A stretch of 64,000 nt of DNA from Dehalococcoidia bacterium (GCA_965250195.1 OZ252295.1:1295212-1359211), one strand, 5' to 3'; counted from the stretch's first letter, positions 39,267-63,283 are shown. Numbers and translations are program-made. The notes: generated by a model from the sequence alone, not told the origin.

Positions 39267-39286
39267 GTCGTGCGGCCCGGCGGGCC

Positions 39287-42716: not shown

Positions 42717-42773
42717 CCGTGTTATTGACCTTCGAGGCAAAGGTACAGGCACGTCGGCCCCGGAATCCGGCAT

Positions 42774-42812: not shown

Positions 42813-42832
42813 TCCGGAGTTTTAAAAAGACG

Positions 42833-42863
42833 ACTCCCGGTACGAAAGGCCGGGAGTTTTTTG
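42833..42863 (+). terminator. Canonical intrinsic terminator (second after the riboswitch; probable expression platform)
   Basis: ACTCCCGG-tacgaaagg-CCGGGAGT followed by a T6 run, 53 nt upstream of the binding-protein ATG. Confidence 0.65.
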
Positions 42864-42915
42864 TGCCTATTGGCCGGTCAAAGTATTTGGCCGGTTTGTC
42901 AGGAGATGACTGGAA

Positions 42916-43905: not shown

Positions 43906-43942
43906 TGCCATCCAAACCCTCTGTGCCTGGGTTAGGAAACCC

Positions 43943-45055: not shown

Positions 45056-45882
45056 CGAGTCCTGCAGCCAGGCTCCGTGTGGACGACCTGCGCTTCGGAT
45101 ACGGTGACGCGCCCGTGCTACGTGGCGTCTCGCTTGCGGCAGAGACCGGCGAGGTGGTGGGGGTGTTGGGGCCGAACGGGTGCGGCAAGACCACGCTCTT
45201 CAAACTGATAATCGGCTCTCTTAAACCCGTGGACGGTCGCATTGACGTCGACGGCGACGACCTGTCGGGCCTCGGGCCCGGCGAGCGTGCCAGAAGAGTA
45301 GCCGCGGTGCCGCAAGACCCGATCGCGCCGATCGGCTTCAATGTAGCGGACCTGGTGATGATGGGCCGCAACCCGCATCTCGGCCTGTTACAGGTGGAGG
45401 GCGAACGGGACCGGGCCATCGCGGTGAAGGCCATGGAGCGCACGGACATCCTTTCCCTGGCGCATCGGCCCGTCACCAGCCTCTCCGGCGGCGAGCGCCA
45501 GCGGGTGTTCGTGGCAATGGCGCTGGTGCAGCGGGCGCCGGTGTTGCTGCTCGACGAGCCGACGTCCAACCTCGATCTGGCCGCGCAGGCGACCGTCATG
45601 GCTCTCGTTCAGCGGTTATGCCGGGAGCGGGGCGACACCGTGCTGGTGGCCATGCACGACCTGACACTGGCGGCCCAGTGGTGCGACCGGCTAGTGCTCA
45701 TGGAAGGTGGCACGGTCCGCACCGAGGGCACGCCGGAATCGGTCCTGACGGGACACAATGTCGCGGCCGTCTACGGTGCTGACGTCGTCATCGCCCGTCA
45801 CCCCCAGAGCGGTACCCCTGTCGTGCTTTCCAGTACCGCCGACCGACGGCCTTCCGGGAGATGCATATTTCCTCCGTCCTAA
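45052..45882 (+). CDS. ABC transporter ATP-binding protein (BtuD/FepC type)
   Basis: Walker A GPNGCGKTT, signature LSGGERQR, and Walker B LLLDEPTS. It overlaps the permease gene by 4 nt. Confidence 0.88.
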   Translation: MTSPAARLRVDDLRFGYGDAPVLRGVSLAAETGEVVGVLGPNGCGKTTLFKLIIGSLKPVDGRIDVDGDDLSGLGPGERARRVAAVPQDPIAPIGFNVADLVMMGRNPHLGLLQVEGERDRAIAVKAMERTDILSLAHRPVTSLSGGERQRVFVAMALVQRAPVLLLDEPTSNLDLAAQATVMALVQRLCRERGDTVLVAMHDLTLAAQWCDRLVLMEGGTVRTEGTPESVLTGHNVAAVYGADVVIARHPQSGTPVVLSSTADRRPSGRCIFPPS

Positions 45883-47363
45883 TGGTGCAGGGCACCGGGT
45901 CGTCGGTGGGCAAGAGCCTGCTGGTGGCTGCCCTGTGCCGAATCTTCCGGCAGGACGGCCACTCCGTCGCGCCCTTCAAGGCGCAGAACATGTCCCTCAA
46001 CTCCGGTGTCACTCCCACGGGCCACGAAATCGGACGGTCGACGCTCGTCCAGGCCGAGGCCGCCGGAATACTACCCTCGGTAGACATGAACCCCATCCTG
46101 CTCAAGCCCGAGGCGGACCACCGTTCCCAGCTGGTGTTGAACGGGCAGCCCGCGGGCCACATCGAGGCGTATCACTTCAACGCAAGGCGGGCCGATATGT
46201 GGGGCGCGGTCACGGTGGCGTTGGGCCGAATGCGAGCCGAGTATGACGTTGTGGTGATCGAAGGCGCGGGCTCCCCGGCCGAGATCAACCTGCGCGGCGG
46301 AGACATCGTAAATATGGAAGTCGCGTTGCACGCCGAGGCCCCGGTGGTGCTGGTCGGCGACATCGACAAGGGCGGCGTCTTCGCCCAGCTCTACGGGACG
46401 CTCGAACTGATCGCGCCCGAAGAAAAAGCGCTGGTGGCGGGCATGGTCATCAACAAGTTCAGGGGCGACGTAAAGGTGCTGGAGCCCGGCCTCGTCACTC
46501 TCGAAGAGCTCACCGGCAAGCCCGTCTTCGGCGTCGTCCCCTACCTCAGGGACCTTCAAATCGCAGAAGAGGACTCGCCGTCCGGCCAGCCCACTGCTGC
46601 GCCGGACTCGCTCGTGGACATCGCCGTCATCGCGCTGCCCCACATCGCCAACTTCGACGACTTCGACCCCCTCAAACGAGAGCCTGGGGTAGGTCTTCGT
46701 TACGTTAGGCGCCTCGAAGAACTGGGCGCGCCCGATCTCGTAATTCTGCCCGGCACCAAGACAACCGTCGCCGATCTGGGCCACCTGCGCGAGAGCGGCC
46801 TCGCCGGCGCCATCGCGGCCCTGGCCGCATCTGGAACTGGCGTGCTCGGCATATGCGGCGGCTTCCAGATGCTGGGCCGCTCCATCCTTGACCCGTCCGG
46901 CGTCGAATCGGCATCTCGCGAGGTAGAGGGGCTCCGATTGCTGCCCGTCACCACCGTGTTCGAGGCCGCCAAAAAGACCCGGCTGGTCACGGGCCGGGCT
47001 CTGGCGTCCTCTGGCGGACTGTTTGAGCACGCCGAGGGGATGGCCGTCTCCGGCTACGAGATACACATGGGGTCATCGACCCTTTCGGGAGATGAGTCGC
47101 CGAGGCGTGCCGGACCGTTCGAACTCCCTCAGCGTAGAGACGGTGCGGCAAGTAAGGACGGATGGGTGGTGGGCACCTACCTGCACGGCCTGTTCGGTAA
47201 CGCAGAGCTGCGTCGCCAAATGATCATGAATCTTGCCATTCGAAAAGGCGTGAAGCTGCCAAGCGCCGAGGTCACTGCCTTCGACCAGGCGGCCGAGTAC
47301 GACCGGTTGGCAGACGAGGTTCGGGCGGCGCTGGACATGGAAGCCATCTACGCGCTCGTCTGA
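45882..47363 (+). CDS. cobQ: Cobyric acid synthase CobQ
   Basis: MVQGTGSSVGKS... CobQ/CbiP N-terminal ATPase domain plus a C-terminal GATase-like domain (GICGGFQMLG...YLHG). The start is placed at the TAATG stop/start overlap (45882), not the tracked 45861. Confidence 0.9.
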   Translation: MVQGTGSSVGKSLLVAALCRIFRQDGHSVAPFKAQNMSLNSGVTPTGHEIGRSTLVQAEAAGILPSVDMNPILLKPEADHRSQLVLNGQPAGHIEAYHFNARRADMWGAVTVALGRMRAEYDVVVIEGAGSPAEINLRGGDIVNMEVALHAEAPVVLVGDIDKGGVFAQLYGTLELIAPEEKALVAGMVINKFRGDVKVLEPGLVTLEELTGKPVFGVVPYLRDLQIAEEDSPSGQPTAAPDSLVDIAVIALPHIANFDDFDPLKREPGVGLRYVRRLEELGAPDLVILPGTKTTVADLGHLRESGLAGAIAALAASGTGVLGICGGFQMLGRSILDPSGVESASREVEGLRLLPVTTVFEAAKKTRLVTGRALASSGGLFEHAEGMAVSGYEIHMGSSTLSGDESPRRAGPFELPQRRDGAASKDGWVVGTYLHGLFGNAELRRQMIMNLAIRKGVKLPSAEVTAFDQAAEYDRLADEVRAALDMEAIYALV

Positions 47364-47422
47364 GTCACCTCGGTGATATCCTGCGGCCCCAAATCGGGTC
47401 CATTCGGGTCGCAGAGGTGAAC

Positions 47423-48550
47423 ATGAACATCGAGACGCTCGCCGTCCATTCCGGCCTCGCCGTGGACCCGTCCACCGGAGCGGTAACACCGCCCATCCAC
47501 CTCTCCACCACCTTCGAGCGAGACCCGGACGGCAGCTATTCGAAGGGCTTCCTCTACGCCCGAATCGAAAACCCCAATCGGAGCGCGCTGGAAACCGCGA
47601 TGGCCGAGCTTGAGGGTGGTGAAGCGGCGGCGGCCTTCTCCTCCGGCATGGCGGCGGCGGCTGCGGTCTTCACCGCGCTGACGCCTGGTGACCACGTTTT
47701 AGCTCCGACCGATGTCTACCACGGCACGGCACAGTTGCTTAGGGACCAGATGACGCGTTGGGGCCTGGACATCGAATTCATAGATATGGGCCGCCTCGAT
47801 GCGGTGCGGGCGAAGATGCGGCCGGACACCCGGCTGGTGTGGACCGAGACACCGTCCAACCCCCTTCTCAAGGTCACGGACCTCAGCGCGGTCGCGGCGC
47901 TGGCCGGTGCTGTCGGGGCCGTAAACGTCTGCGATTCGACCTGGGCGACACCCGTTTTGCAGCGCCCGCTCCTGCTCGGCTGCGACCTCGTAGTGCACGC
48001 CTCCACCAAGTACCTTGGCGGCCACGGCGACGTGCAGGGCGGACTCGTCGTCGCGGCGAAAGCCGAAGGCTTTTTCGAGCGAGTGCGGGACGTCCAGGCG
48101 AACGGAGGCGCAGTGCCGTCCCCATTCGACTCCTGGCTCGTGCGGCGGGGCATTCGCACGTTGCCACTGCGCATGAGCGCGCACTGCACGGGCGCCCAGC
48201 GAATCGCCCAGTTTCTGGACGGCCACGCGAAAGTTAGCGCCGTCCACTACCCCGGCCTGCCCCATCACCCCGGCCACGAAATAGCCGCCGGGCAGATGTC
48301 CGGTTTCGGGGGCATGGTGTCGTTCCAGGTAAGTGGCGGCGCCGATGCGGCCAAGTTCGTTGCTGCCGCCACGACTCTCTTTACACGCGCCACCAGTCTG
48401 GGCGGAACGGAGAGCCTGATCGAGCACCGGGCCTCCATGGAGGGCGAGGCGACGGCCACGCCCGATGACCTGCTGCGCCTCTCCATCGGGTTGGAGCACC
48501 CCGACGATTTGATCGCCGATCTGGAGGGAGCGCTAGGGGCTTCGAGCTGA
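47423..48550 (+). CDS. Cys/Met-metabolism PLP-dependent enzyme (cystathionine gamma-synthase / beta-lyase / sulfhydrylase family)
   Basis: ETLAVHSG..., the PLP-lysine motif HASTKYLGGHGD, and C-terminal RLSIGLEHPDDLIADL. The start could be GTG 47417 or ATG 47423. Confidence 0.85.
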   Translation: MNIETLAVHSGLAVDPSTGAVTPPIHLSTTFERDPDGSYSKGFLYARIENPNRSALETAMAELEGGEAAAAFSSGMAAAAAVFTALTPGDHVLAPTDVYHGTAQLLRDQMTRWGLDIEFIDMGRLDAVRAKMRPDTRLVWTETPSNPLLKVTDLSAVAALAGAVGAVNVCDSTWATPVLQRPLLLGCDLVVHASTKYLGGHGDVQGGLVVAAKAEGFFERVRDVQANGGAVPSPFDSWLVRRGIRTLPLRMSAHCTGAQRIAQFLDGHAKVSAVHYPGLPHHPGHEIAAGQMSGFGGMVSFQVSGGADAAKFVAAATTLFTRATSLGGTESLIEHRASMEGEATATPDDLLRLSIGLEHPDDLIADLEGALGASS

Positions 48551-48688
48551 TCGGCGCTCCTTGTTTTGACCCCTTGTGGTGGGGTAGAGTACCAGCGCGA
48601 AATGGCACCCGTCTGAGCGTGCCAATGGCCGGGCTTTTGGCGGAGCCCATCACGCTCAGCGCCAGGTCGCTAAACAGAGGAGGACTCG

Positions 48689-51034
48689 ATGACCACTTCC
48701 CTAATGGGCGTCCGTGTAAAGAGGCGTGAAGACGCGCGGCTTTTGCGCGGCACCGGCAAATACGTCGACGACATAAAGCTGGCGGGGATGCTGTCCATGC
48801 AGCTGGTTCGTAGCCCTTACGGTCACGCGAAGATCACCAGCATCGACTCCTCTGCCGCCGAGGCGATGGACGGCGTTGTCGCCGTCTACACCGGCGAGCA
48901 GCTCAAAGACGAGCAGGGCTCCGTGCCGTGTGGATGGGTAGTCCCCGACACCAAAGAAGTCGCCCACCCTCCTATAGCCATCGACACCGTGCGCTTCGTC
49001 GGTGACATCGTCGCGGCCGTCGTGGCCAGGACCCCCGAGGCGGCGGCAGACGCCGTCCGATTGGTAGACGTAGAGTACGAGAACCTTCCCGTGGTAGTCG
49101 GGACTGGAGAGGCCGCCAAGCCCGGCGCCCCTCAGCTGCACCACGACGCCCCCAACAACATCGCTTTCGAGTGGCAGGTCGCCGGTGGCGACGTCGACGC
49201 CGCCGTCAAGGAAGCCGAAGTCGTCGTCAAGCAGACCATGGTCAACCAGCGACTGGTCCCCAACGCCATGGAGACGCGCGGCATCGTCTGCGAATACAAC
49301 CACGGCTCCAACCAGCTCACCCTGTGGACCTCGACTCAGATCCCGCATCTCGTGCGGCTACTGTTGGCCCTGACCATCGGCCACCCCGAGCATCTGATTC
49401 GGGTGGTCGCCCCGGACGTGGGTGGCGCATTCGGCTCCAAGCTCTACATGTACGCGGAGGAAGTCATCGCCGCCGTCGTGGCCAAGCGTGTGAGGCGCCC
49501 GATCAAGTGGATCGAGTCCCGGCAGGAGGCGTACATGGCGACCACTCATGGTCGCGATCACCTCAGCACCGGCACCCTAGCTGGGAAAAGTGACGGCACC
49601 ATAACCGCATTGGACGTCGAAACCACCGCCAACATGGGCGCCTACCTTTCTACGTTCGCCCCGCTCATTCCGACGCTCCTCTACGGGCTGATGATGGGCG
49701 GCCCTTACGACCTGGCGAACCTGCGGTGCAGTGTCACCGCCGTCTACACCAACACCACACCTGTCGATGCCTACAGGGGCGCCGGGCGGCCCGAGGCCGT
49801 GTACATCATTGAGCGGCTGGTGGACATGTTCGCCGCCAAGATCGGCATGGACCCCGGAGTCGTGCGGCGAAAGAACTTCATCGAGCCCTTCGACGACGGC
49901 CACACGGTCGCCACGGGCGTCACCTACGACAGTGGCAACTACCACATCGCGTTCGACCGGGCCATGGAGATCGTCGGCTACGAAGACTTCCGCGCCGAGC
50001 AGGCCGCCGCTCGCGACGAGGGTCGATTGCTCGGAATCGGCCTCTCAACGTACGTAGAAATCTGCGGCGCGGCCCCGTCGTCCGTAGCCGTCACCCTCGG
50101 GGCGCGTGCTGGACTCTGGGAGAGTGCGACTGTTCGTGTGAATCCCACCGGAACTATTCGCGTATTCAGCGGCTCATCCAGCCACGGCCAGGGCCACGAG
50201 ACCGCCTTCGCCCAACTGGTAGCAGGTGAACTCGGGGTCCCAATCGAAAACGTCGAGATCGTCCACGGTGACACCGACCAGGTCCAGTTCGGCACCGGCA
50301 CCTTCGGGTCTCGGAGCGCCGCGGTCGGTGGAGGCGCCATCAACGCGGCCGTCACCAAAATCAAAGACAAGGCCAAAAAGCTCGCGGCCCACCTGCTGGA
50401 AGCCGCGCCCGAGGACATCGTCTACGAAGACGGCAAGCTCTTCGTAAAGGGCGCCCCGGCAGAGGCCAAGACTTTTGGGGACATCGCCCTCGCGGCTCAT
50501 GTCTACGCCGGTGAGCTTCCTGATGGGATGGAGCCCGGGTTGGAAGAAACGAGTTTCTTCGACCCCAGCAACTTCACCTGGCCCTTCGGCACCCACATCG
50601 CCGTCGTCGAAATAGACCCCGACACCGGTGCGGTAACACCCCTTCGGTACATAGCGGTGGACGACGTTGGCAACATCATCAACCCGATGATCGTCGACGG
50701 CATGGTGCATGGCGGCGCCGCCCAGGGGATGGGTCAGGCGTTGCAGGAAGAGGCCATCTACGATGACGACGGTCAGCTGCTGACCGGCACCATGCTGGAC
50801 TACGCAGTACCCTCAGCCGAAGATCTCCCGAACTTCGAAGTAGACCAGACCGTCACTCCCACGCAGGTCAATCCGATGGGCGTCAAAGGCGCTGGAGAGA
50901 CGGCCACCATCGCCGGCTCGCCCGCCGTCATCAACGCCGTCGTAGATGCGCTGGCGCACCTTGGCGTGACCCATCTCGACATGCCCGCCAAGCCCGAGAA
51001 CGTCTGGCGCGTCATGCGGGACGCACAGGCCTGA
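48689..51034 (+). CDS. Molybdopterin-binding large subunit of the xanthine dehydrogenase / CO dehydrogenase family, form-II CoxL-like
   Basis: A 781-aa aldehyde-oxidase/XDH a/b-hammerhead plus Mo-binding architecture. The active-site loop reads AYRGAGR (49769-49789), the form-II signature, not the form-I AYxCSFR. Confidence 0.85.
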
Positions 51035-51045
51035 GCCGAGACCCC

Positions 51046-51969
51046 GTGAGCCAAGCCCGGCCGAGCAAAACCGGGCCCAACGGCGCTCGGCGGAGTTCGG
51101 ACCCGGTCGGAAAAATCCTCGACCGGCTGGAGTCGGCCGACTACATCGCCGACCCGTCCATCGGCACCGCCATCTACATGGCCCAGGAGTTGGGTCGTCC
51201 GCTGCTAATAGAGGGCAGGGCGGGCGTCGGCAAGACGGAAATAGCTAGGGTCATGGCCGGGCTGCTCGAAACGCGCCTCATACGCCTGCAGTGCTACGAG
51301 GGGTTGGACGTCAACACCGCGCTCTACGAGTGGAACTACCCACGCCAGCTCCTGCACATCAAACTGGACGAGGGCAGCGGCCGGTCCACGGCGGACCGCG
51401 AGCGTGAGATATTCAGCCGCGAATTCTTGCTGGAGCGCCCCCTGCTGGCGGCCATCACCGAGCCCGACAGGGCGCCCGTGCTGCTCATCGACGAGATCGA
51501 CCGGGCAGACGAAGAGTTCGAGGCGTTCTTGTTGGAAATCCTCTCGGATTTCCAGGTCACGATCCCCGAGCTGGGCACCATAGCTGCAACGCATCCGCCC
51601 CTGGTGATCCTCACCTCCAACCGTACGAGAGAGCTATCCGACGCGCTGCGGCGCCGGTGCCTGTACCTGTGGATCGACTACCCGGACTACGAAAAAGAGT
51701 TGCGCATCGTGCGGGCCAAAATACCAGGTATCGAGGAGCAACTTGCCAGCCAGGTAGTGAAATTCGTAGAGGACGTGCGCGGTCTCGATCTGGACAAGTT
51801 GCCGGGCGTCTCAGAAACGTTGGACTGGGCCAGGGCCATGATCGTAATGAGCTATGAGAAGATCGACCGCGAGGCGGTCGAGAGCACCCTGGGGGCGCTC
51901 ATCAAAGACGCCGACGACCTGGAGGAGTTCAGGGCAAAGGCCCTCGAGGAGCTCGTGGCAAAAGTTTAG
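51046..51969 (+). CDS. MoxR-family AAA+ ATPase (CoxD-like)
   Basis: Walker A GRAGVGKTE, Walker B LLIDEIDRA, and a typical MoxR length (307 aa). GTG start 12 nt after the CoxL-like stop codon. Confidence 0.88.
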   Translation: MSQARPSKTGPNGARRSSDPVGKILDRLESADYIADPSIGTAIYMAQELGRPLLIEGRAGVGKTEIARVMAGLLETRLIRLQCYEGLDVNTALYEWNYPRQLLHIKLDEGSGRSTADREREIFSREFLLERPLLAAITEPDRAPVLLIDEIDRADEEFEAFLLEILSDFQVTIPELGTIAATHPPLVILTSNRTRELSDALRRRCLYLWIDYPDYEKELRIVRAKIPGIEEQLASQVVKFVEDVRGLDLDKLPGVSETLDWARAMIVMSYEKIDREAVESTLGALIKDADDLEEFRAKALEELVAKV

Positions 51970-52061
51970 AACCGCTGGCGAAGGTATAACGGCCGGCGCA
52001 AACACCGTTAGCTCACCGTAAGGGCGATTGCGACGAAGCGATCGTCATTGAGGAGAAAAAA

Positions 52062-53732
52062 ATGGCAAGGATGACCGGTAAAAAGGCGCTGCTGGAGATG
52101 CTCCGGGCCGAGGGTGTCAAGTACATCTTCGGCAACCCCGGCACCTCTGAGGGGGCGATCATGGACGCCCTCGAAGACTACCCGGACATCCACTACGTCC
52201 TGGCCACGCAGGAGGGCGCGGCCATGGGCGCGGCCGACGCCTACGCCCGTGCCACCGGCAAGCCTTCGTTCGTAAACCTGCACATCGAAACCGGCCTGGC
52301 CAACGGTATCAGCCTGCTGCACAACGCGGCGGCAGGCGGCACGCCGTTGGTGCTGACCGCGGGCAACAAAGACATGCGAAAGCTCATCGAGGGCCGCACG
52401 CCCCTGGCCGACATGGTCAAGACCTTCACCAAGTGGAGCGCGGAGCTGACGCACCCCGAACAGATACCTGCCGCCATTCGGAGGGCCTTCAACGAGGCGC
52501 GCACGCCGCCCTCAGGTCCCACCTTCATTGCCTTCTCCGCCAACGCCCTTGATGGCGAGGCCGACATGGAAATCGTGCCCAATTCGAAAGGCTACTTCCG
52601 AATGGGACCGGACGCCGACGCCATTAAAGAGGCCGCCGACATACTGGCGAGCTCCAAGAACCCCGTCATGCTGGTGGGTGACCGCGTAGCGCAGTCCGGC
52701 GCGTCAGAAGAGGCCGTGCGCGTGGCGGAAGCACTGGGTGCTCCCGTCTATTCCACCCTCTACTCCGAGATGAACTTCCCCTCTCGCCACCCGCTGTACA
52801 AGGGCCCCCTGCTCTGGGGCTTTCCAACAGGCAAAGAGGCTCTCGCCGACGCCGACGCCGTTATCGCGGTCGGTAACACCTTCTCCGGCTACTTCTTCTT
52901 CCCAGACGAGGGGAACAGTTCCTTCGCCCCCAGCACCAGGGTCGTGCACATGGACGCGTCGCCCGTGGAGGTCGGCAAGAGCGAGCCCACCGACGTCGGC
53001 ATAATCGCCGACCCCAAAATCGGCCTCGCCCAATTGGCAGAGGCGCTGGAAGGCGCCATGAGCGGCAGCGCGCAAGAAGCGGCCAAGGGTCGAGCCGAGA
53101 CCGTGGCCGGTGAGACCGCGAGCGCCAGGGCCAAGTGGGAAGCCCGCATAAAAGAGCGCTGGGACATCTCACCCATGTCGGCGGAGCGCATGATGGCCGA
53201 GGTGGCCGCCGTCATCCCCGATGACACGGTGATAGTGGACGACTCGGTCACCACCCGCGCGGCGGTGGTCGGCGCCATCGAGTTCAACCGGCCCGGCCAG
53301 GTGTTCGGCGAGCGTGGCGGTGCCATCGGCTGGGGCATCGGCGGCGGCATGGGCGCCAAGCTGGCCAACCCCGGCAAGCCGGTCATAGCCATCCTCGGCG
53401 ACGGCTCGGCCATGATGACCGTGCAGGGTTACTACACGGCCGCCATCGAGAACATCCCCATCATCTACATCATCTGCAACAACGAGGCGTACCGGGTCCT
53501 GAAGGTCAACATGGACGTGTACAAGAGCCTCGTCGTGGGTCAGAACCCGCCCCAGAGCAAGTACATGGCGATGGACTTCCCCCAGCGGCTCGACCACGCG
53601 GCCCTGGCCCGGGCGATGGGCGTCTACGGGGTGCGCATCGAAGACCCGGCCCAGATAGGGCCTGAGCTAACCAAGGCCCTCGCGTCCGGCAAGCCCGCCG
53701 TCCTCGACATCGTCATCGACGGGGCTCTTTAG
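52062..53732 (+). CDS. Thiamine-diphosphate-dependent enzyme (benzoylformate decarboxylase / acetolactate synthase-like)
   Basis: N-terminal ...GVKYIFGNPGTSE and the ThDP-binding motif GDGSAMMTVQ...IIYIICNNEAY. Length is 556 aa. Confidence 0.85.
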   Translation: MARMTGKKALLEMLRAEGVKYIFGNPGTSEGAIMDALEDYPDIHYVLATQEGAAMGAADAYARATGKPSFVNLHIETGLANGISLLHNAAAGGTPLVLTAGNKDMRKLIEGRTPLADMVKTFTKWSAELTHPEQIPAAIRRAFNEARTPPSGPTFIAFSANALDGEADMEIVPNSKGYFRMGPDADAIKEAADILASSKNPVMLVGDRVAQSGASEEAVRVAEALGAPVYSTLYSEMNFPSRHPLYKGPLLWGFPTGKEALADADAVIAVGNTFSGYFFFPDEGNSSFAPSTRVVHMDASPVEVGKSEPTDVGIIADPKIGLAQLAEALEGAMSGSAQEAAKGRAETVAGETASARAKWEARIKERWDISPMSAERMMAEVAAVIPDDTVIVDDSVTTRAAVVGAIEFNRPGQVFGERGGAIGWGIGGGMGAKLANPGKPVIAILGDGSAMMTVQGYYTAAIENIPIIYIICNNEAYRVLKVNMDVYKSLVVGQNPPQSKYMAMDFPQRLDHAALARAMGVYGVRIEDPAQIGPELTKALASGKPAVLDIVIDGAL

Positions 53733-53742
53733 GAAAAGTCCA

Positions 53743-54186
53743 ATGACCGAAAAGACAGAACACGCCCGTTTAGAAGCCTTTCTAAAGCCGTCGCTAATCG
53801 CGGTGGCGGCCACCGTGGGCACCAGCGGCATGCCACAGGTGACCCCGGTCTGGTACGACTACCGGGACGGGGCCATGCTCATCTCCGTCACCAAGGAGCG
53901 TCTCAAGTACAAGAACCTCGTCCGCGACCCCCGTCTGTCGGTGTGCGTGTACGGCCCGCCTCTGGCCAAGGTATTCGTCACCATGACCGGCCGGGCCGAG
54001 CTGTCCGACGATGACTCCATCTGGGAGCCCACCCGGAGAATCTGTGAGCGCTACATGTCGGCGGACGAAATCGAGCCCTGGATGCGGATGCTCAAGGGCG
54101 AGAACCGCGTCATCATCACCCTCAGGCCAGATCGTGTCATGTTCAAAGACCTCGACGCGATACTCCCCGCCGGACCCGGTGGCTAG
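53743..54186 (+). CDS. PPOX-class (pyridoxamine 5'-phosphate oxidase fold) probable F420-dependent enzyme
   Basis: A 147-aa split-barrel pattern ...IAVAATVGTSGMPQVTPVWYDY...RDPRLSVCV.... Confidence 0.7.
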   Translation: MTEKTEHARLEAFLKPSLIAVAATVGTSGMPQVTPVWYDYRDGAMLISVTKERLKYKNLVRDPRLSVCVYGPPLAKVFVTMTGRAELSDDDSIWEPTRRICERYMSADEIEPWMRMLKGENRVIITLRPDRVMFKDLDAILPAGPGG

Positions 54187-54245
54187 GCACGGCTCCCAGG
54201 GGCTCACGGCTCCTAGGGACATACACTGGGGGCGGCACTGAGAAA

Positions 54246-55328
54246 ATGGCCGCCATCCTGCACGCTGACTTCGACGCCTTCTACACCTCGGTAGAACAGC
54301 GCGACGACCCGGCGCTGCGCGGTAAGCCCGTCGTCGTGGGTGGCGACCCCGAAACGAGGGGCGTCGTTGCGGCCGCATCTTACGAAGTGCGGGAGTTCGG
54401 CGTCCGCTCCGCCATGCCCATGAAGACCGCCATGAGGCTGTGCCCCCACGCCGTTCGGGTTTATCCGAGGTTCGAGGTTTATCGAGACGTCTCCCGCCAG
54501 GTCATGGAGATTTTTCGTGTGGTCACGCCCCTGGTCGAGCCGCTCTCTCTCGATGAGGCGTTTTTGGACGTCACGAATCGAGTGGATGAGCAATGGTCCC
54601 CGGAAAAGATTGCCCGCGGCCTCAAGGGCCGTATCAAAAAGCGCACGAGCCTGACCATCTCCATCGGCGTCGCGTCCAGCAAGTCGGTGGCAAAGATCGC
54701 CTCGGACATGGACAAGCCCGACGGTCTCACGGTGGTCGTTCCAGGTAAAGAACAGCAGTTCTTGGCTCCGCTCCCGGTTGGCCGACTGTGGGGCATCGGC
54801 CCCAAGACCCAGGAGCGCCTGGCGGGCGACGAAATCACGACCATCGGTCAGCTCGCAGAGCGACCGGTCGAATGGTTCGCGAAAAATTTCGGGAAAAACG
54901 GCCCGTTTTTTCGGGACCTCGCCAACGGCATCGACCAAAGGCCCGTAGTGGTGGAACGCAGGCGAAAGTCTTTGAGCGCCGAGACCACGCTCGCCGTCGA
55001 CTCCGGCGACACCGAGCAGCTAACCGAACTGGTCGAGAGATTGAGCGCAAGGGTTGGAAGCCAGTTAGAGCGGCGGGGCATGTCCGGCCGCACCGTGAAG
55101 CTGAAGCTGCGGCTGGAAGATTTTACGACTTTCACCCGCCAGGTAACGCTTGATCACCCGGTGTCATCACCGGACGAAATCGGCCGGGCGGCGACGGAGA
55201 TGCTGCGCCGAGAGCTGGCCCCAGACCGGCGCTTCCGGCTCGTCGGCGTCGGCGTCTCCGGCTTCGAGACCCCCGAGACGGCCGAAGAAGAGAACCCCTT
55301 GCAGCCCCGTCTGGTCGGACTGGGCTAG
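54246..55328 (+). CDS. dinB: DNA polymerase IV
   Basis: ILHADFDAFYTSVEQRDDPALRGKPVVVGG, SLDEAFLDVT, and GIGPKT motifs. Confidence 0.92.
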   Translation: MAAILHADFDAFYTSVEQRDDPALRGKPVVVGGDPETRGVVAAASYEVREFGVRSAMPMKTAMRLCPHAVRVYPRFEVYRDVSRQVMEIFRVVTPLVEPLSLDEAFLDVTNRVDEQWSPEKIARGLKGRIKKRTSLTISIGVASSKSVAKIASDMDKPDGLTVVVPGKEQQFLAPLPVGRLWGIGPKTQERLAGDEITTIGQLAERPVEWFAKNFGKNGPFFRDLANGIDQRPVVVERRRKSLSAETTLAVDSGDTEQLTELVERLSARVGSQLERRGMSGRTVKLKLRLEDFTTFTRQVTLDHPVSSPDEIGRAATEMLRRELAPDRRFRLVGVGVSGFETPETAEEENPLQPRLVGLG

Positions 55329-55371
55329 AGTGCCGTGTGGACCGGGTCCGCATGCTCTAACATCGGTTGCC

Positions 55372-55989
55372 ATGATCGCCGACCCCTCATCGACGCCTGA
55401 GCCCGACGGCCTCGTTCGCTGCCACGACGAGGTCTACGAGACCTTCGAGCGTCTCGAATATCACGACCGTTACTGGGGCACCCCCACGCGCAACGAGCGG
55501 CGGCTCTTCGAATTCCTCTCCCTCAGCGGAATGCAGGCCGGTCTCAGCTGGTGGACAATCTGGCGTCGCCGGGAGGCTTTTCGCGCAGCATTTGACGATT
55601 TTGAACCCTCTAAAGTAGCGGACTACGGCGAAGACAAGATCGAAAAACTGCTCAACGACAAGGGGATAATTCGCAACCGGACCAAAATCAACGGAATCAT
55701 CACCAACGCCCGTGCCATCGGGACCCTGGCTCCTGAGTTCGCCAGTTTGACCGATTACCTTTGGTCCTATTTGGGCGGCAGCCCGAGGCTCAACCGGTGG
55801 GCCCGCAACGAGACCGTCCCCGCCGTCGCGCCGCCGGCGCAAGAGTTGAGTGTCGACATGAAGAAGCGCGGATTCAAATTCTGCGGGCCGACCATCATGT
55901 ACGCCTACATCGGCTCCGTCGGCCTCGTAAACGACCACCGCGAGGGCTGCTACAAGCAGGGCGAGCAACCCTTTGATATGAGCCGTTAA
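55372..55989 (+). CDS. tag: DNA-3-methyladenine glycosylase I (Tag), paralog 1
   Basis: RC...YHDRYWGTP...FEFLSLSGMQAGLSWWTIWRRREAFRAAF...IIRNRTKI...GPTIMYAYIGSVGLVNDH. The start is set at ATG 55372; the tracked ORF (55150) merely extends over the dinB 3' end. Confidence 0.85.
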   Translation: MIADPSSTPEPDGLVRCHDEVYETFERLEYHDRYWGTPTRNERRLFEFLSLSGMQAGLSWWTIWRRREAFRAAFDDFEPSKVADYGEDKIEKLLNDKGIIRNRTKINGIITNARAIGTLAPEFASLTDYLWSYLGGSPRLNRWARNETVPAVAPPAQELSVDMKKRGFKFCGPTIMYAYIGSVGLVNDHREGCYKQGEQPFDMSR

Positions 55990-55992
55990 CCC

Positions 55993-56568
55993 ATGCCCGA
56001 GCCAACCCGCTGCGACTGGTCCACCGACGACCCTGAGATGGTCGCCTACCACGACGAGGTGTGGGGGGTGCCACAGCGCGACGACCGGGCGCTGTTCGAG
56101 TTCCTAACGCTGGAGGGCGCCCAGGCGGGCCTGAGCTGGAGCACAATCTTGCACAAACGTGAAGGCTATCTTCGCGCCTTCGAAAAATTCGACGCCTCCG
56201 TCGTGGCAGGATACGACGAGGCCAAAATCGAGAGCTTGCTTGCCGACCCCGGCATCATCCGCAACCGCCTCAAGGTGCGCTCCACCATCACCAACGCGGC
56301 CGTGATAATCGAGCTACGGGATGCGGGCGTCAGCCTGTCCGATTACCTGTGGGCCTTCGTGGATGGCGTACCGATCGTGAACCGGCGCCGCGAAATGTCG
56401 GAAGTCCCCGCCGTCACGGACGAGGCTGCGGCCATGAGCAAGGCGCTGAAAAAGCGTGGCTTCCGCTTCGTCGGCCCAACCATCTGCTACGCGTTAATGC
56501 AGGCCTGCGGCATGGTCAACGACCACGTAGTGGACTGCTTCCGGTACTCAGAAGTGTCTGAGGGCTAG
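55993..56568 (+). CDS. tag: DNA-3-methyladenine glycosylase I (Tag), paralog 2
   Basis: RCDW...YHDEVWGVP...FEFLTLEGAQAGLSWSTILHKREGY...IIRNRLKV...GPTICYALMQACGMVNDH. Confidence 0.9.
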   Translation: MPEPTRCDWSTDDPEMVAYHDEVWGVPQRDDRALFEFLTLEGAQAGLSWSTILHKREGYLRAFEKFDASVVAGYDEAKIESLLADPGIIRNRLKVRSTITNAAVIIELRDAGVSLSDYLWAFVDGVPIVNRRREMSEVPAVTDEAAAMSKALKKRGFRFVGPTICYALMQACGMVNDHVVDCFRYSEVSEG

Positions 56569-57521
56569 CCGAGTACAGCCCCGGCGAAGTCGTCGTGCCC
56601 GGCCATGAACTCGGGCGCCGAGACCGCCTTGCGGCCTGCCATCTGTAGCCGCGTGATTGACAGCGTCCCCTCGCCCGTCGCCACCGCGATGACGCCGCCC
56701 AAGACCGAAACCGAGACCGTAACTGTGCCCGGCGCCTGTGCGTCCCCGGTCGTCGCCGTCGCTTCAAGCAACTTCACCGTCTTGTCGCCCCAGGCCGTAA
56801 ATGTTCCCGGCCACGGGTGATAGGCGCGCACCATGCGGGCGATGTGATCGGCCGACGCATCCCAGTCGATACGCCCGTCCTCCCGGGACAGCCGTTTTGA
56901 CAGCGTCGCGCCCGAGCCGTCTTGCGGCTGCGGCTCTGAGCGCCCCGCGTCCAGGTCGGTGAGTGCATCGATTAGCAGCCCGGCCCCCATATCGAACAGG
57001 CGCCTGGTCAGCGCCGGGGTGCCCTCGTCCGGTTCGATTGGCGTCCGGCTTTGTGCCAGCAGCGGCCCGGTGTCGAGGCCTTCGTCCAGCAGCATCACCG
57101 TGACGCCGGTCGTCTCGTCGCCGCTCAGAATCGCAGCGGCGACGGGAGAGGCACCCCGGTGTTGGGGCAGCAGCGATGGGTGAATGTTCAGGCAACCGAG
57201 CCGGGGCGCATCCAGCACGGCTTTAGGCAAGATCTTCCCGTAGGCCGCGACCACCGCGGCGTCGGGCTCCAGCGCCGCGAACTGAGCCTGCGCGACGGCG
57301 CCCTTGAGCGATCCCGGTTGCAAGACTCGCAGTCCTCGCTCCTCGGCAAACGCCTTCACCGGCGTCGGCTGCGTTTTCTTGCCTCGTCCGGCGGGCTTAT
57401 CGGGTTGCGTGTAGACGCCGACCACCTCGTGCCCGGCGCCGAGCAATAGCTCCAGCACCGGCACCGCAAAGCCGGGCGTCCCCATAAATACGATTCGTAT
57501 CTTCGTCTCCGTCTTTGCCAA
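56565..57521 (-). CDS. fmt: Methionyl-tRNA formyltransferase
   Basis: IVFMGTPGFAVP, NIHPSLLPQHRGASP, and the C-terminal Fmt domain. Confidence 0.92.
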   Translation of the reverse strand: MAKTETKIRIVFMGTPGFAVPVLELLLGAGHEVVGVYTQPDKPAGRGKKTQPTPVKAFAEERGLRVLQPGSLKGAVAQAQFAALEPDAAVVAAYGKILPKAVLDAPRLGCLNIHPSLLPQHRGASPVAAAILSGDETTGVTVMLLDEGLDTGPLLAQSRTPIEPDEGTPALTRRLFDMGAGLLIDALTDLDAGRSEPQPQDGSGATLSKRLSREDGRIDWDASADHIARMVRAYHPWPGTFTAWGDKTVKLLEATATTGDAQAPGTVTVSVSVLGGVIAVATGEGTLSITRLQMAGRKAVSAPEFMAGHDDFAGAVLG

Positions 57522-57530
57522 CCGTGTCCC

Positions 57531-58661
57531 TCAGTGCCCGAGCAGCGCCGGCAGTTTCTTGAGTTGTTCCAGATCCCGTATCGACACGAACCGGTCGACG
57601 TGACCCTCTGCCGCTACTAGCGACCGGGTTGCTTGTTCATAGCCCTCGCCGCCCAGGAGCGGGTTCAGCCAGTACACCCGTCGCACCCGGCGGCGCATGC
57701 GGCGCAGCTCTCGCGCAAGCCTCTCGGGCGACCCCGTATCCCAGCCATCGCTGACCAGGAACACCGTTGTGAGCCGGTCTTGCAGCGCCGGGTACCGGGT
57801 GTTGATGTGAGACAGGCTGTCGCCGATCCTAGTCCCCCCCGACCAGTGGTCGACCGCGTCCCCGATCTTTGTCAGCGCGTCTCGAAACGTGGGGGCGGCC
57901 AGCAGGCCGGTGACACGAGTGACAGAGGTACTGAAAACAAACGTCTCGGCCCGCGTCGTCTGTTGGGCGATGCCGTAGGCCAGCTCCAACATGAGCCCGG
58001 CATTGCGGTCCATGGATCCGCTCGCGTCCAACGCCAGTAGTAGCCGGGGCGTCCGTTCAATGCGCGTCCTGCGCGGCAGGTACAGCGGATCGCCGCCCGA
58101 GCCCAGGCTCTTGCGAAGCACGCCTCGCATGTCGATCGTTCCACGTCTGCGGTGACGCCGCAGCCTGCGAGACGGCCGCGATGCCAGCGCGGCGACGATG
58201 CGGGCGGCGACGCGCGAGACCTGCTCGGCCCGGTCCGAGTCCAGCACTGCCAGGTCGGCGCCCTGGTCGGACTCGTTGGTGCTCGCCCCCGTCCGTACGA
58301 GTTGAAGGAGTATGTCCTCGGAATTGGGGTCATGCCACACACCGGCGGCTACCCCGGCGGTGGCTCGCACCCGGGCTTTGCCGGGCAGATCGCGGCTTGC
58401 GTCTCGGGGCTCCCGCTCCGGAGGAGCATCGAAATCCCAGAAGCGTTGGAACAGCGCGTCGAACGTCGGCACCTCGTGCCGGGCCGACACCAGCACGGCC
58501 CTCAGCGCCCAGTACACGCTGCCGGGAGTGAGCAGGTCCACCAGCGCCATCGCCCGCAGCGCGTCCACGCTCTCGGGCGGCCCGGCGGTGAGGCCGTGGT
58601 CGCGGAGCGCCCGGCAGAACCTCGTCACGTGCGAGCTAACGTCATAGTCGGCCGTCGTCAT
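57531..58661 (-). CDS. VWA domain-containing CoxE-like protein
   Basis: N-terminal ...FCRALRDHGLTAGPPESVDALRAM... and a C-terminal VWA/MIDAS region LLLALDASGSM...FLVSDGWDTG, as in CoxE-type proteins that partner MoxR/CoxD ATPases. Confidence 0.8.
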   Translation of the reverse strand: MTTADYDVSSHVTRFCRALRDHGLTAGPPESVDALRAMALVDLLTPGSVYWALRAVLVSARHEVPTFDALFQRFWDFDAPPEREPRDASRDLPGKARVRATAGVAAGVWHDPNSEDILLQLVRTGASTNESDQGADLAVLDSDRAEQVSRVAARIVAALASRPSRRLRRHRRRGTIDMRGVLRKSLGSGGDPLYLPRRTRIERTPRLLLALDASGSMDRNAGLMLELAYGIAQQTTRAETFVFSTSVTRVTGLLAAPTFRDALTKIGDAVDHWSGGTRIGDSLSHINTRYPALQDRLTTVFLVSDGWDTGSPERLARELRRMRRRVRRVYWLNPLLGGEGYEQATRSLVAAEGHVDRFVSIRDLEQLKKLPALLGH

Positions 58662-58715
58662 ATCGCCATTCTAGCGGCGCCTCGTCTTTGGTGAAGGCTC
58701 GCCGAACGGGCGTTG

Positions 58716-58724
58716 TGCTAATAT
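58716..58724 (+). promoter_or_regulatory. Candidate extended -10 element (TGcTAATAT) upstream of the DUF1800 cluster
   Basis: TGCTAATAT at 58716-58724 in the divergent spacer between the VWA gene and the DUF1800 gene. No convincing -35 element. Confidence 0.3.
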
Positions 58725-58814
58725 CCGGCCCATCCCAGGTATCGCCCCCTGCACCGGCCATTTTGGCACGAGGGCCGCATATCGCCGGGGTCGCCACAAA
58801 GCGAGGAGAAGCGA

Positions 58815-60254
58815 ATGGCAACGACGGACGAACTCGCCCTAACCGCCCACCTTATGCGCCGCGCCGGTTTCGGCGTGTCTTGGTCCGACCTTGAGCGGCT
58901 GTCCGGCCAGAACTACGAGCAGCTAGTAGAAGAACTGCTCCACCCGGAGGACAACCCCCCGGTGGACGAGTTCCTTCTTTACCGTTACCACCCCACCACC
59001 GAGATACCGGGCGGCAACGTGGCCCAGGGTCAGGCCAACTACCTGTTCCACATGATCAACACCCCCCGGCCGCTGGAAGAGAAACTGGCGCTGTTCTGGC
59101 ACCACGTCTTCGCCACCGGGAACAACAAGGTCGACAACTGCAACCACCTCATGGACCAGGTGCAGATGTTCCGCGACCACGGCATGGGCAACTACCGCGA
59201 CATGCTCAAGCGCATCGCCCGGGACCCGGCCATGATCTACTGGCTCGACAACCAGGAGAACCACAAATACGCCCCCAACGAGAACTGGGGCAGGGAACTG
59301 CTCGAGCTTTTCTCTATGGGTGTCGGGACCTACTCGGAGACCGACGTCTTCGAGGCCTCGCGCGCCTTCACTGGCTGGACCGTCTCGGCCAAGATGCCGA
59401 GATTCCCTTATGGCCGATTCCCTTGGACCTTCGAGTTCCGGGCCGAGGACCACGACGAGACCGACAAGACGTTTTTGGGCCACACTGGCAACCTCAACGG
59501 CGACGACATCATCGACATCGTCGTTGAGCAACCGGCATGTCACCGCTTCATTGCCCGCCACCTGTACAACTTCTTCGTCGCCGACGAGCCCCAGGTACCG
59601 GCCTGGCAGATCGAAGAGCCCCGAGACCCGGCCGCAGTGGACGCCATCGCAAAGGTCTTCGTGGAGTCCAACCTGGAAATACGTCCCGTACTGAGATTCA
59701 TCTTCAACTCCGACTTCTTCAAGTCAAAGGCCGTGCGGTTCCAGAGGGTCAAGTCTCCAGCCGAGGTCGTTGTGGGCACCGTGAACATGATCGACGAATA
59801 CAAGGGGCCCGTGCCCTATCTGGAGATAGACCTCTCCCGGCAGGCCGGGTATATGGGCCAGGACATACTCGACCCGCCCAGCGTAGAGGGCTGGCACACC
59901 GGCAAGGAGTGGATCAACTCCGGCTCGCTGGTCACCCGCATCAACTTCGTCGCGGGCATGGTGAGCAACCCCGCCCACAAGGGCGTGCGCGACATCATCG
60001 ACCGGGTCCACGCCGAGCCGGGCGTCGCCTCTCCCGAGGGTCTGGTGGACGCCACGTTGAAATACATGGGCATGGTCGAAGTAGGGCAGGACACCCGGCG
60101 AGAGCTGGTAGAGCACGCCCGAGGCGCCAGCCCCATCGCCGCAAACGAAGGCGGCAACGGAAACGGCCACAGTGCCGCAAATGCGAGCACCGACACGGCC
60201 GTAATGGAGATGATGTCCCTCATCGCCGCCACTCGCGAATACCAGTTCTGTTAA
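58815..60254 (+). CDS. DUF1800 family protein (no recognisable signal peptide)
   Basis: N-terminal LTAHLMRRAGFG... and ...LFWHHVFATG...MIYWLDN...NENWGRELLELFSMGVG are the DUF1800 patterns. A GAGGAG Shine-Dalgarno precedes the ATG. Confidence 0.8.
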   Translation: MATTDELALTAHLMRRAGFGVSWSDLERLSGQNYEQLVEELLHPEDNPPVDEFLLYRYHPTTEIPGGNVAQGQANYLFHMINTPRPLEEKLALFWHHVFATGNNKVDNCNHLMDQVQMFRDHGMGNYRDMLKRIARDPAMIYWLDNQENHKYAPNENWGRELLELFSMGVGTYSETDVFEASRAFTGWTVSAKMPRFPYGRFPWTFEFRAEDHDETDKTFLGHTGNLNGDDIIDIVVEQPACHRFIARHLYNFFVADEPQVPAWQIEEPRDPAAVDAIAKVFVESNLEIRPVLRFIFNSDFFKSKAVRFQRVKSPAEVVVGTVNMIDEYKGPVPYLEIDLSRQAGYMGQDILDPPSVEGWHTGKEWINSGSLVTRINFVAGMVSNPAHKGVRDIIDRVHAEPGVASPEGLVDATLKYMGMVEVGQDTRRELVEHARGASPIAANEGGNGNGHSAANASTDTAVMEMMSLIAATREYQFC

Positions 60255-60284
60255 CCGGGTTCTCAAGTCCGAGAGGAGAAAAAT

Positions 60285-61466
60285 ATGACCACAGCACAAA
60301 AAGACCCGGTCGTCGTCGTAGTCCAGCTATCGGGTGGCAACGACTACCTCAACACCGTAGTCCCCTACGCCGACCCCAACTACTACGATGGGCGGCGTAA
60401 CCTCAACATCCCCGAAGACCAGGTTCTTCATCTCGATGATGAATTGGGCTTCCACCCTGCAATGGGACCGATGGCACGCATGTACAAAGAGGGCAACGTA
60501 GCCGTCATCCACGGCATCGGCTACCAGAACTCGGTGCGCTCCCACTTCCGGTCCATGGACATCTGGCACACGTGTGAGCCGGTGAAGGTCGGCACAGAGG
60601 GCTGGTTGGGCAGAGCTACAAGAGAGCTGGACCCGAACGGCGAAAACCCGGTCACCGCGGTCAACTTCGGCCACGGTCTGCCCCGTGCCCTGGTGGTGCC
60701 GGGAGTCTCGGTGGCATCAGTTGCGGACCTGTCCAACTACGGCCTGCTCACCGACATAGCGGAGCGGGAAAAGCGAGAGGCGGTGCTGCAGCGCTTCACC
60801 AACATCTACGCCCCTGAGATGGGAGCGGGGCAAGTTATGGATTATCTCGGCCAGACAGGTCGTGACGCCCTGAAGGGGGCCGACATCCTCAAGGCCGCGC
60901 CTCAGAAATACAACTCCACCGTCGAGTACGCTTCGACCGGCATCGCCCGGAGCCTGCGGGACATCGCCATGACCCATACGGCCAACCTCGGCACCCGCAT
61001 CTTCTACACCCAGCACGGCAGCTACGACACCCACGCCGGGCAGGCGGCTGCCCATCACAAGTTGTGGTCCGAGCTATCGGTCGCCATATCCGACTTCTGG
61101 GACGACCTGCGCGAGCACGACGCCGACGAGAACGTGGTCATGTACCTGTTCTCCGAGTTCGGTCGCCGGGTGCGCGACAACGGCTCCGGCACCGACCACG
61201 GAGCGGCCGGGGTGTCGTTTGTGATCGGTCCCAGGGTTGCGGGTGGCATGTACAGCACCTACCCGGACACCAGGGCAGAGGCGCTGGACCAGGGCGATCT
61301 CGTCCCCAACGTAGACTTCCGCAGCTCCTACGCCACCATCCTGGAGGACTGGCTGAGGCTCGACGCCGTGCCCATCGTCAAAGGCTCCTTCGAAAAGCTG
61401 GCATTCGTCGGTAGCGGCCCCAGCGGCGGCAATGGGCCCAATGGCGGCAACGGGGCTAGGGTGTAG
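60285..61466 (+). CDS. DUF1501 family protein (sulfatase/alkaline-phosphatase-like fold); lacks the usual Tat signal
   Basis: VVVQLSGGNDYLNTVVPY...HPAM...IHGIGYQNSVRSHFRSMDIW...FYTQHGSYDTHAGQ...SEFGRRVRDNGSGTDHG is the DUF1501 pattern. The N-terminus MTTAQKDP goes straight into the first beta strand. Confidence 0.8.
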   Translation: MTTAQKDPVVVVVQLSGGNDYLNTVVPYADPNYYDGRRNLNIPEDQVLHLDDELGFHPAMGPMARMYKEGNVAVIHGIGYQNSVRSHFRSMDIWHTCEPVKVGTEGWLGRATRELDPNGENPVTAVNFGHGLPRALVVPGVSVASVADLSNYGLLTDIAEREKREAVLQRFTNIYAPEMGAGQVMDYLGQTGRDALKGADILKAAPQKYNSTVEYASTGIARSLRDIAMTHTANLGTRIFYTQHGSYDTHAGQAAAHHKLWSELSVAISDFWDDLREHDADENVVMYLFSEFGRRVRDNGSGTDHGAAGVSFVIGPRVAGGMYSTYPDTRAEALDQGDLVPNVDFRSSYATILEDWLRLDAVPIVKGSFEKLAFVGSGPSGGNGPNGGNGARV

Positions 61467-61475
61467 GGAGGCGAA

Positions 61476-62483: not shown

Positions 62484-62821
62484 TGCCGATGATGGTGGGC
62501 TTCTCGGCCCAGCGCTCCGAGGCGTTGCGGCGTGAGGTCGAGCGCTACGTCGCCATGATGCCGACGCTCGGTGTAGATCGCGCCGTATTGATCGGCGACC
62601 TCGCCGTCGGCAACGTCGAGCCAACGACCCCTGTTCAGCTCGTCGTCGTGCACGAAACGGACGCGCCCTTTTCCCGCAGGGCCGACTTCTTCTACAGCCA
62701 TCTGGAGCCCCGCGTCGCCCTGGACGTGACCGTCTACACCCGTGACGAGTTTTTCGAAATCTCGGAAGGCGACGGCCCTGCCGGTCAGCTCATAAGGTCC
62801 GGCGACTCCATCTTCGGCTGA
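62483..62821 (+). CDS. Minimal nucleotidyltransferase (MNT)-like protein, apparently lacking the DxD catalytic pair
   Basis: The size (112 aa), the ...LIGDLAVGN-x8-QLVVV... segment and the ...LDVTVYTRDEF tail fit the MNT fold. The position upstream of a HEPN gene, with a TGATG stop/start overlap to it, also fits. Confidence 0.55.
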   Translation: MPMMVGFSAQRSEALRREVERYVAMMPTLGVDRAVLIGDLAVGNVEPTTPVQLVVVHETDAPFSRRADFFYSHLEPRVALDVTVYTRDEFFEISEGDGPAGQLIRSGDSIFG

Positions 62822-63228: not shown

Positions 63229-63283
63229 AGGCCCGTCGGCCCTCGCCTATAGTCCCCTGAAGCACCGAGCACGAGGAGAGAAA

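Follow-up and report, generated by a model that had tools for sequence, protein, structure and literature searches.

We analysed a 64,000-nt stretch of DNA from a Dehalococcoidia bacterium (GCA_965250195.1 OZ252295.1:1295212-1359211), hereafter the window, and studied its region 48689-58661, which carries a gene for a CoxL-like molybdoenzyme large subunit. It is quite likely that this protein is the catalytic subunit of an ordinary three-subunit form-II CO dehydrogenase (CODH)-like enzyme, and that the genes for its iron-sulfur subunit (CoxS) and its flavin subunit (CoxM) lie elsewhere in the genome. We favour this reading because the nearest reference proteins are CoxL and QorL, because the protein belongs to the form-II group of enzymes encoded by coxS-coxL-coxM (S-L-M) operons, and because its own clade (clade a) shows no divergence from an S-L-M sister clade (clade b) and has known cognate S-M pairs. 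An earlier reading made from this DNA alone (the sequence-only reading) had called the CoxL an orphan. The S and M genes are indeed not in the window, but relatives in the same clade have cognate S-M pairs: contiguous in one locus (L164), 4 kb away in another (L010) and apparently ~350 kb away in a third case (L023/L162). Unlinked partner genes are the norm among the clade-a relatives. What "orphan" describes is the layout, not the biology; only the gene layout is unusual.

The large subunit and the search for its partners

Gene identities were assigned from a map of open reading frames (ORFs) together with Pfam and NCBIfam scans of the window ORFs. All identities proposed in the sequence-only reading (CoxL, CoxD, CoxE, a thiamine diphosphate (ThDP) enzyme, a PPOX-class protein, dinB, two tag genes and fmt) were borne out. 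The features of the predicted enzyme system in the window are as follows.

48689-51034, plus strand: CoxL-like large subunit of form-II type, molybdopterin cytosine dinucleotide-binding; 781 aa, three Pfam domains
49769-49789, plus strand: active-site loop AYRGAGR, residues 361-367 (position computed), without the Cu-binding Cys of form I
51046-51969, plus strand: CoxD-type MoxR AAA+ ATPase of the maturation chaperone type, GTG start; AAA_5 and AAA matches
57531-58661, minus strand: CoxE-type VWA protein; VWA_CoxE (PF05762) at 168.6 bits against a cutoff of 26.4

The large subunit contains the Ald_Xan_dh_C (PF01315), MoCoBD_1 (PF02738) and MoCoBD_2 (PF20256) domains, all far above their cutoffs (E 2e-29 to 2e-91). 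Its closest solved structures are CoxL of M. smegmatis (8uem, 3e-202) and QorL of quinoline 2-oxidoreductase (1t3q, 2e-165), and the CODH large subunits of Hydrogenophaga and Oligotropha are further solved relatives. When aligned with 1n5w, 8uem and 1t3q, the residues of the Mo site are present: the active-site Gln (Q217), the catalytic Glu (E737) and the cofactor motifs GGAFG (245-249), GQGHET (500-505) and GTFGSRS. The protein stays below the NCBIfam cutoffs for form-I CODH (TIGR02416; 720.3 bits against 991.15) and for the alpha subunit of glyceraldehyde dehydrogenase (NF041018; 707.6 bits against 790). A look-up of its exact sequence gave no existing record.

The loop AYRGAGR lies exactly where the sequence-only reading had put it. 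Form-I references have AYRCSFR or AYACSFR at this place, and QorL has AYRGVGF. Phylogenetic placement had been proposed as a check. In a neighbor-joining (NJ) distance tree, built without support values from the form-I proteins of Afipia/Oligotropha carboxidovorans OM5 and M. smegmatis, QorL, and the S-L-M proteins of Azospirillum, S. meliloti and Halorientalis, the window protein was placed inside the AYRGAGR form-II group and not with form I or QorL. Its identity is highest with the form-II references (49-53%) and lower with form I (40-45%) and QorL (39%). Judged from its sequence, the product of 48689-51034 is the catalytic Mo-pterin subunit of a form-II CODH-like hydroxylase of the xanthine-oxidase family. 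Since the Cu-ligand Cys is absent, the substrate is probably not CO at a Cu-Mo site. The substrate of the form-II CoxL homologs is still unknown (PMC13203968, PMC11411561).

The coxS-coxL-coxM order of form II does not occur in the window. As the sequence-only reading had stated, CoxS and CoxM are encoded nowhere in it. A tblastn search of the window with four queries each for CoxS and CoxM (from Azospirillum, OM5 and two Dehalococcoidia) gave no credible match, and none of the ~60 ORFs scanned with Pfam along the window contained a Fer2_2, FAD_binding_5, CO_deh_flav_C, COXG or XdhC domain. By these two approaches, there is no CoxS, CoxM, CoxG, CoxF or XdhC gene in the 64 kb. The only tblastn match below 0.01 was a CoxS match at 47834-47989(-) with an E-value of 9e-5. 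This is not a remnant of coxS; it runs antisense within a full-length gene for a PLP enzyme and has no Cys ligands for the cluster.

Two clades and the location of the CoxS-CoxM pairs

The neighbourhood of orthologs, also proposed as a check, was profiled in 80 loci. These are the matches listed in a pattern-based scan, one genome per species, and all are from Dehalococcoidia or Chloroflexota metagenome-assembled genomes (MAGs). Gene order was obtained by tblastn mapping of cox proteins, and clades were taken from a further NJ tree. The large subunits fall into two sister clades, a and b, with 40 loci each. Clade b is 57-63% identical to the window large subunit and has the S-L-M order in 40/40 loci, usually with a CoxG-like SRPBCC gene upstream; CoxD and CoxE were not found within 10 kb. 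Clade a, which includes the window (64-91% identity to it), has L-CoxD with CoxE present or absent, and the S-L-M order in none of its 40 loci. CoxS or CoxM is found within 10 kb in just two clade-a loci, L010 and L030. The arrangement of the window, L-D-ThDP-PPOX-dinB-tag-tag-fmt(-)-CoxE(-), recurs in L004, L007 and L035 and also in L174, a JGI contig that is 95% identical. The relative P0121 (95% identical) shows this layout on a contig of only 25 kb.

The AYRGAGR loop is invariant (100%) across 41 sequences of clade a and 40 of clade b, and all other catalytic motifs are also identical between the clades. Only six positions are diagnostic for clade a or b, all of them conservative. Columns conserved at 90% or more number 383 of 781 in clade a and 396 of 781 in clade b. 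Nothing in this comparison points to a functional divergence of the clades. Because the motifs are invariant and conservation is equal in both clades, the window gene is a conserved, selected and normal-looking form-II catalytic subunit.

This conservation bears on the idea that the large subunit can do without Fe-S and flavin partners, either as a stand-alone molybdoenzyme with another acceptor or as a non-catalytic protein. Such an idea would fit the lack of an S or M gene within 48 kb upstream or 13 kb downstream, and it has a parallel in an AYRGAGR homolog on a Rubrobacter plasmid, which also has no annotated S/M neighbours. It is hardly credible, however, when conservation equals that of the S-L-M clade and members of the window's own clade adjoin S-M in L164 and L010. 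To our knowledge, no member of the enzyme family works without at least a [2Fe-2S] partner. The Rubrobacter homolog (L170; Rubrobacter indicoceani plasmid NZ_CP031117.1, 5977-8343) is 49% identical, and the PLSDB annotation, in which no Fe-S/FAD subunit appears beside it, may be incomplete. It is preceded by pxpA, a 5-oxoprolinase subunit gene, and by carboxyltransferase genes.

Among the matches listed, no genome is shared between the clade-a and clade-b lists, in which about a dozen genomes per side are complete chromosomes. Because no genome occurs in both lists, the clades suggest one enzyme with lineage-specific gene layouts, not co-resident paralogs. The opposite view is that the window protein is a second, alternative catalytic subunit that swaps into the CoxS/CoxM of an S-L-M operon elsewhere in the same genome. 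Complementarity between the clades would suit this: S, M and CoxG occur in clade b, where D and E are lacking within 10 kb, and D and E occur in clade a, where S and M are lacking. In addition, SAR202 MAGs with two cox-like operons have been reported (PMC11411561). We consider this view very unlikely. It meets the 0/40 overlap just mentioned (from a scan that was not exhaustive), the S-M-L contiguity in L164, and the finding that clade-a genomes own S-M pairs without L, whose CoxM proteins form a separate clade.

Partner genes were traced in relatives with CoxL of 69-71% identity. In L164/L165, CoxS-CoxM-CoxL-CoxG-CoxD-CoxE are contiguous and co-oriented, and the CoxL is 71% identical to that of the window. 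The CoxM of this cluster (P0028) and its clade-a large subunit (P0153) lie on one 471,221-bp contig. L164 is the sole fully contiguous cluster of this kind found for clade a. In the clade-a locus L010, L and CoxD are followed by CoxE(-) and CoxG(-); next comes a CoxS-CoxM pair whose genes are 29 nt apart and not separated by an L. All of these genes lie within 8 kb, and the S-M pair is ~4 kb from the large subunit. When the L010 CoxM was used as a probe, CoxS lay directly upstream of CoxM, with no L, in 4/4 informative short metagenome contigs.

A protein-database search with CoxM gave many CoxM proteins of 65-79% identity, six of which were looked up, P0028 being one of them. Five of the six (L162, L163, L171, L172 and L173) belong to an S-M pair without L, with S-M at ~7500-10900 in each. 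In this setting CoxG(-) is upstream in 3/5, and DRTGG(-), CcmH and CcmF are downstream in 5/5. When the best 120 matches each of CoxL and CoxM were compared for shared large contigs, at least two pairs were matched. One S-M pair without L (P0074, L162) is at ~1.517 Mb on a 2,987,976-bp contig, and the clade-a large subunit of L023 is at ~1.165 Mb on a contig of 2,987,976 bp; the two are ~350 kb apart if the contig is the same. They appear to be on the same chromosome. In the CoxM tree, the CoxM proteins of the L-less modules and those of L164 and L010 form one clade, which mirrors the large-subunit tree. Accessory genes of SAR202 form-II cox have also been reported elsewhere in the genome (PMC11411561).

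Because L-less CoxG/S-M modules recur in many contigs, the cluster of clade a is best read as split into two putative modules: a catalytic/maturation module (L-CoxD, with CoxE nearby) and, at a second locus, an electron-transfer module (CoxG/CoxS-CoxM). The window lineage shows a further separation, with 5.6 kb of unrelated genes between CoxD and CoxE.

The following points weigh against this account. The S-M pair of the source genome is a prediction and was not seen, the reach of the search being the 64-kb window. In the closest relatives (83-95% identical; among these, the complete chromosomes OZ220697.1, OY760908.2 and OZ242262.1 have CoxL of 83-84% identity) no S-M locus was identified, and the CoxM proteins that could be traced are from genomes whose CoxL is 69-71% identical to the window's. 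The placing of L023 and L162 on the same contig rests on identical size (2,987,976 bp) and source, not on overlapping sequence. Finally, an L-less S-M pair could in principle serve another large subunit.

Some observations in these loci stand apart. In L164 (ENA contig ctg360922, 471 kb; 1-16600), two Transposase_mut genes flank the cluster, and an IS110 transposase, a relaxase-like gene and HTH genes are upstream, so that the cluster may ride on a mobile element. The DRTGG/CbiA-like gene beside the S-M pairs is on the opposite strand and is followed by the cytochrome c maturation genes CcmH and CcmF; an enoyl-CoA hydratase gene is often upstream of S-M. A sub-lineage of the window clade (L019, L020, L022, L023 and L050; ~10000-13200) has a large subunit without CoxD. 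An efflux-type pair, an HlyD-like protein of ~800 aa and an FtsX-like permease, is upstream in this sub-lineage, and a conserved ORF of ~100 aa and a CoxG-like gene follow the large subunit in L022, L023 and L050. In L030 (6225-14469), an L-M-S operon resembling E. coli xdhABC is directly upstream of a clade-a L-CoxD-CoxE. Its large subunit is 27% identical to that of the window, and the resulting M-S-L-D-E run mimics the form-I order.

CoxD, CoxE and the neighbouring genes

In this enzyme family, the chemistry is established and electrons pass from Mo to [2Fe-2S] and then to FAD. For the predicted enzyme, the Mo-pterin site of the large subunit, where Gln217, Glu737 and AYRGAGR are present, would hydroxylate or oxidise the substrate. 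After assembly with the separately encoded subunits, electrons would move to the two [2Fe-2S] clusters of CoxS and on to the FAD of CoxM. CoxG would probably pass them on to quinone, as shown for form I, in which CoxG is the quinone carrier (PMC12202499). CoxD and CoxE would be the maturation ATPase/VWA pair for the Mo site. In Oligotropha, CoxD uses ATP to drive the sulfuration of the Mo site; CoxE, a VWA protein bound to the membrane, forms a complex with CoxF, which delivers copper (PMC4240915). By analogy, at a Cu-free form-II site the shared job of CoxD and CoxE is likely to be the installation of the sulfido ligand.

CoxD has Walker A (GRAGVGKT) and Walker B (LLIDEID) motifs and is 56% identical to OM5 CoxD over 287 aa and 59% identical to the CoxD of the complete L164 cluster. 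CoxE is 34% identical to OM5 CoxE. A CoxD homolog is downstream of the large subunit in 33/40 clade-a loci, and CoxE comes right after CoxD in 10 other clade-a loci. In the window, CoxE is displaced to the opposite strand and lies upstream of fmt with a 9-nt gap, both on the minus strand, in agreement with the sequence-only reading. This fmt(-)/CoxE(-) placement recurs in L004, L007, L035 and L174. Two distances needed correction: the CoxL-CoxD gap, given before as 12 nt, is 11 nt, and CoxE, given as 6.5 kb away, starts ~5.6 kb past the end of CoxD. A single inversion that moved CoxE off CoxD is unsupported: the inverted repeats detected in 51900-58900 were all short, GC-rich pairs of the kind expected by chance, and the order L-D-E-fmt occurs in none of the relatives.

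The best NCBIfam name of CoxD is "MadB family AAA-type ATPase" (275 bits against a cutoff of 475), and that of CoxE is "MadC family VWA" (112 bits against 600). Literature searches for a MadB/MadC system found no paper describing one. CoxE is adjoined by a DUF1800/DUF1501/NHL-repeat trio at 58815-62483. A trio 41-58% identical to it occurs at 1-3777 of L172, ~4 kb from the CoxG/S-M module; this identity is too weak for the trio to be taken as a sign of ancestral linkage.

The genes between CoxD and CoxE are listed below.

52062-53732, plus strand: ThDP enzyme, distantly benzoylformate-decarboxylase-like; three TPP domains
53743-54186, plus strand: F420-dependent PPOX-class protein; TIGR03618 at 90.3 bits against a cutoff of 79.05
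54246-55328, plus strand: dinB (Pfam/NCBIfam)
~55372-55989, plus strand: first tag gene (Pfam/NCBIfam); start inferred from an ATG at 55372 and a 205-aa ortholog in L174
55993-56568, plus strand: second tag gene (Pfam/NCBIfam)
56565-57521, minus strand: fmt (Pfam/NCBIfam)

The genes dinB, tag, tag and fmt (54246-57521) are an intervening housekeeping block outside the enzyme system. The position of the ThDP and PPOX genes needs more consideration, since the sequence-only reading had joined CoxL, CoxD, ThDP and PPOX into one catabolic unit. In this view, the genes of 48689-54186 form an operon devoted to the catabolism of one aromatic or heterocyclic substrate of the 2-oxoacid type, and S and M could still act in trans. 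All four genes are on the plus strand, separated by 11, 92 and 10 nt, with no convincing terminator in between. It must be noted that a promoter/terminator scan of 47000-59500 gave counts at the level of shuffled sequence and is uninformative on operon structure. The ThDP enzyme resembles benzoylformate decarboxylase (BFD), and its homolog is downstream of CoxD in 17/40 clade-a loci as well as in the 95%-identical L174.

The comparison of the 40 clade-a loci did not support such a unit, and we regard it as unlikely. Wherever the contig is long enough, the ThDP gene is accompanied by dinB and often by fmt, that is, by block synteny with housekeeping genes. CoxD and ThDP are separated by insertions of 0.4-4 kb in six loci (L012, L027, L028, L032, L034 and L041; up to ~4 kb in L041 and L028). 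No ThDP homolog was found in the 10 L-D-E loci, L010, the complete L164 cluster or the 40 S-L-M loci. PPOX homologs at the window position are restricted to the closest relatives (L004, L006, L007, L035 and L174). The ThDP enzyme is also below every NCBIfam cutoff, with 322.4 bits against 493 for benzoylformate decarboxylase (NF005485); its best solved relative is 4q9d (6e-62), and the best match to a solved BFD is 213 bits. Because of the co-travelling dinB and fmt, the insertions, the ThDP absences and the narrow distribution of PPOX, inherited lineage synteny fits the ThDP/PPOX association better than a functional operon.

A functional version of the split can also be imagined. The CoxG/CoxS-CoxM locus beside DRTGG/CcmH/CcmF would be a stand-alone electron-transfer chassis onto which separately encoded and regulated L and CoxD dock, and the window L could be co-expressed with ThDP/PPOX in a substrate-specific pathway. 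We give this only a slim chance. If true, it would provide a handle on the long-unknown substrate of the form-II enzymes.

The rest of the window is core chromosomal by Pfam: rho, hrcA-dnaJ, engA, panBC, a 2-oxoacid dehydrogenase complex, ligA and recF-gyrB, together with an uptake/cobQ operon controlled by a B12 riboswitch. The sole match in an Rfam scan of the window was this cobalamin riboswitch (RF00174, 42576-42728(+), 38.9 bits), and the scan found no Moco riboswitch ahead of the CoxL gene. The riboswitch-led run (42576-48550) continues on the plus strand with a BtuF-like binding protein, a FecCD permease, an ABC ATPase, CobQ (cobyric acid synthase-like) and a PLP enzyme of Cys/Met metabolism, and stops 138 nt before the CoxL gene. 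Four long ORFs have no Pfam family at E<=0.01: 2705-5713(+), 5817-6869(+), 39245-40462(+) and 63059-63979(-), of 1002, 350, 405 and 306 aa. The 405-aa ORF overlaps the ends of ligA and gyrB and may be spurious. A HEPN-domain protein of 135 aa is encoded at 62821-63228, close to the end of the window.

Comparison with known systems and implications

The closest known systems are the form-II coxSLM enzymes of Azospirillum, Sinorhizobium meliloti and the SAR202 "Carboxydicoccus". They have the same AYRGAGR loop and fall in the same tree group, and the window protein is nearer to the Dehalococcoidia S-L-M clade (57-63%) than to the proteobacterial enzymes (49-53%). The Azospirillum system has CoxD and CoxE accessory genes, as does the window. 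These systems differ in their S-L-M order, whereas the window clade has L-D(-E) with S-M elsewhere, or S-M-L-G-D-E if contiguous. Moreover, no XdhC-type gene is near the window CoxL.

The form-I CoxMSL enzymes with CoxDEFG (OM5; M. smegmatis, 8uem) share the fold and the domain order, and 8uem is the best solved match. Their coxL-coxD-coxE order matches the L-D-E adjacency of clade a, and CoxD and CoxE are 56% and 34% identical to those of OM5. However, form I has AYRCSFR with the Cu-ligand Cys instead of AYRGAGR, its large subunits are 40-45% identical to that of the window, and the TIGR02416 score is 720 against 991. The window is also without CoxF, and M-S are not ahead of L in it. The quinoline 2-oxidoreductase QorMSL (1t3q) and other CoxL-like N-heterocycle hydroxylases, namely 6-hydroxypseudooxynicotine dehydrogenase (7dqx) and the Sulfurisphaera glyceraldehyde oxidoreductase (4zoh), belong to the same family and align with the window large subunit over the full length. 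QorL shares an AYRG-type loop with it, but the loop itself is AYRGVGF, the identity is 39%, and QorL is the outgroup to form I and form II. For glyceraldehyde dehydrogenase, the window protein is below the NCBIfam cutoff.

Marine SAR202 and other Dehalococcoidia are rich in form-II CoxL homologs, which lead to overestimates of CO oxidisers (PMC13203968, PMC11411561). Because clade a keeps the catalytic gene with the chaperone and has the Fe-S and flavin genes elsewhere, cox surveys restricted to S-L-M or M-S-L operons would miss or misclassify it. A large subunit that looks like an "orphan" should not be taken for a new single-subunit enzyme. The locus is otherwise ordinary, and its chief practical value is a caution for operon-based cox surveys.

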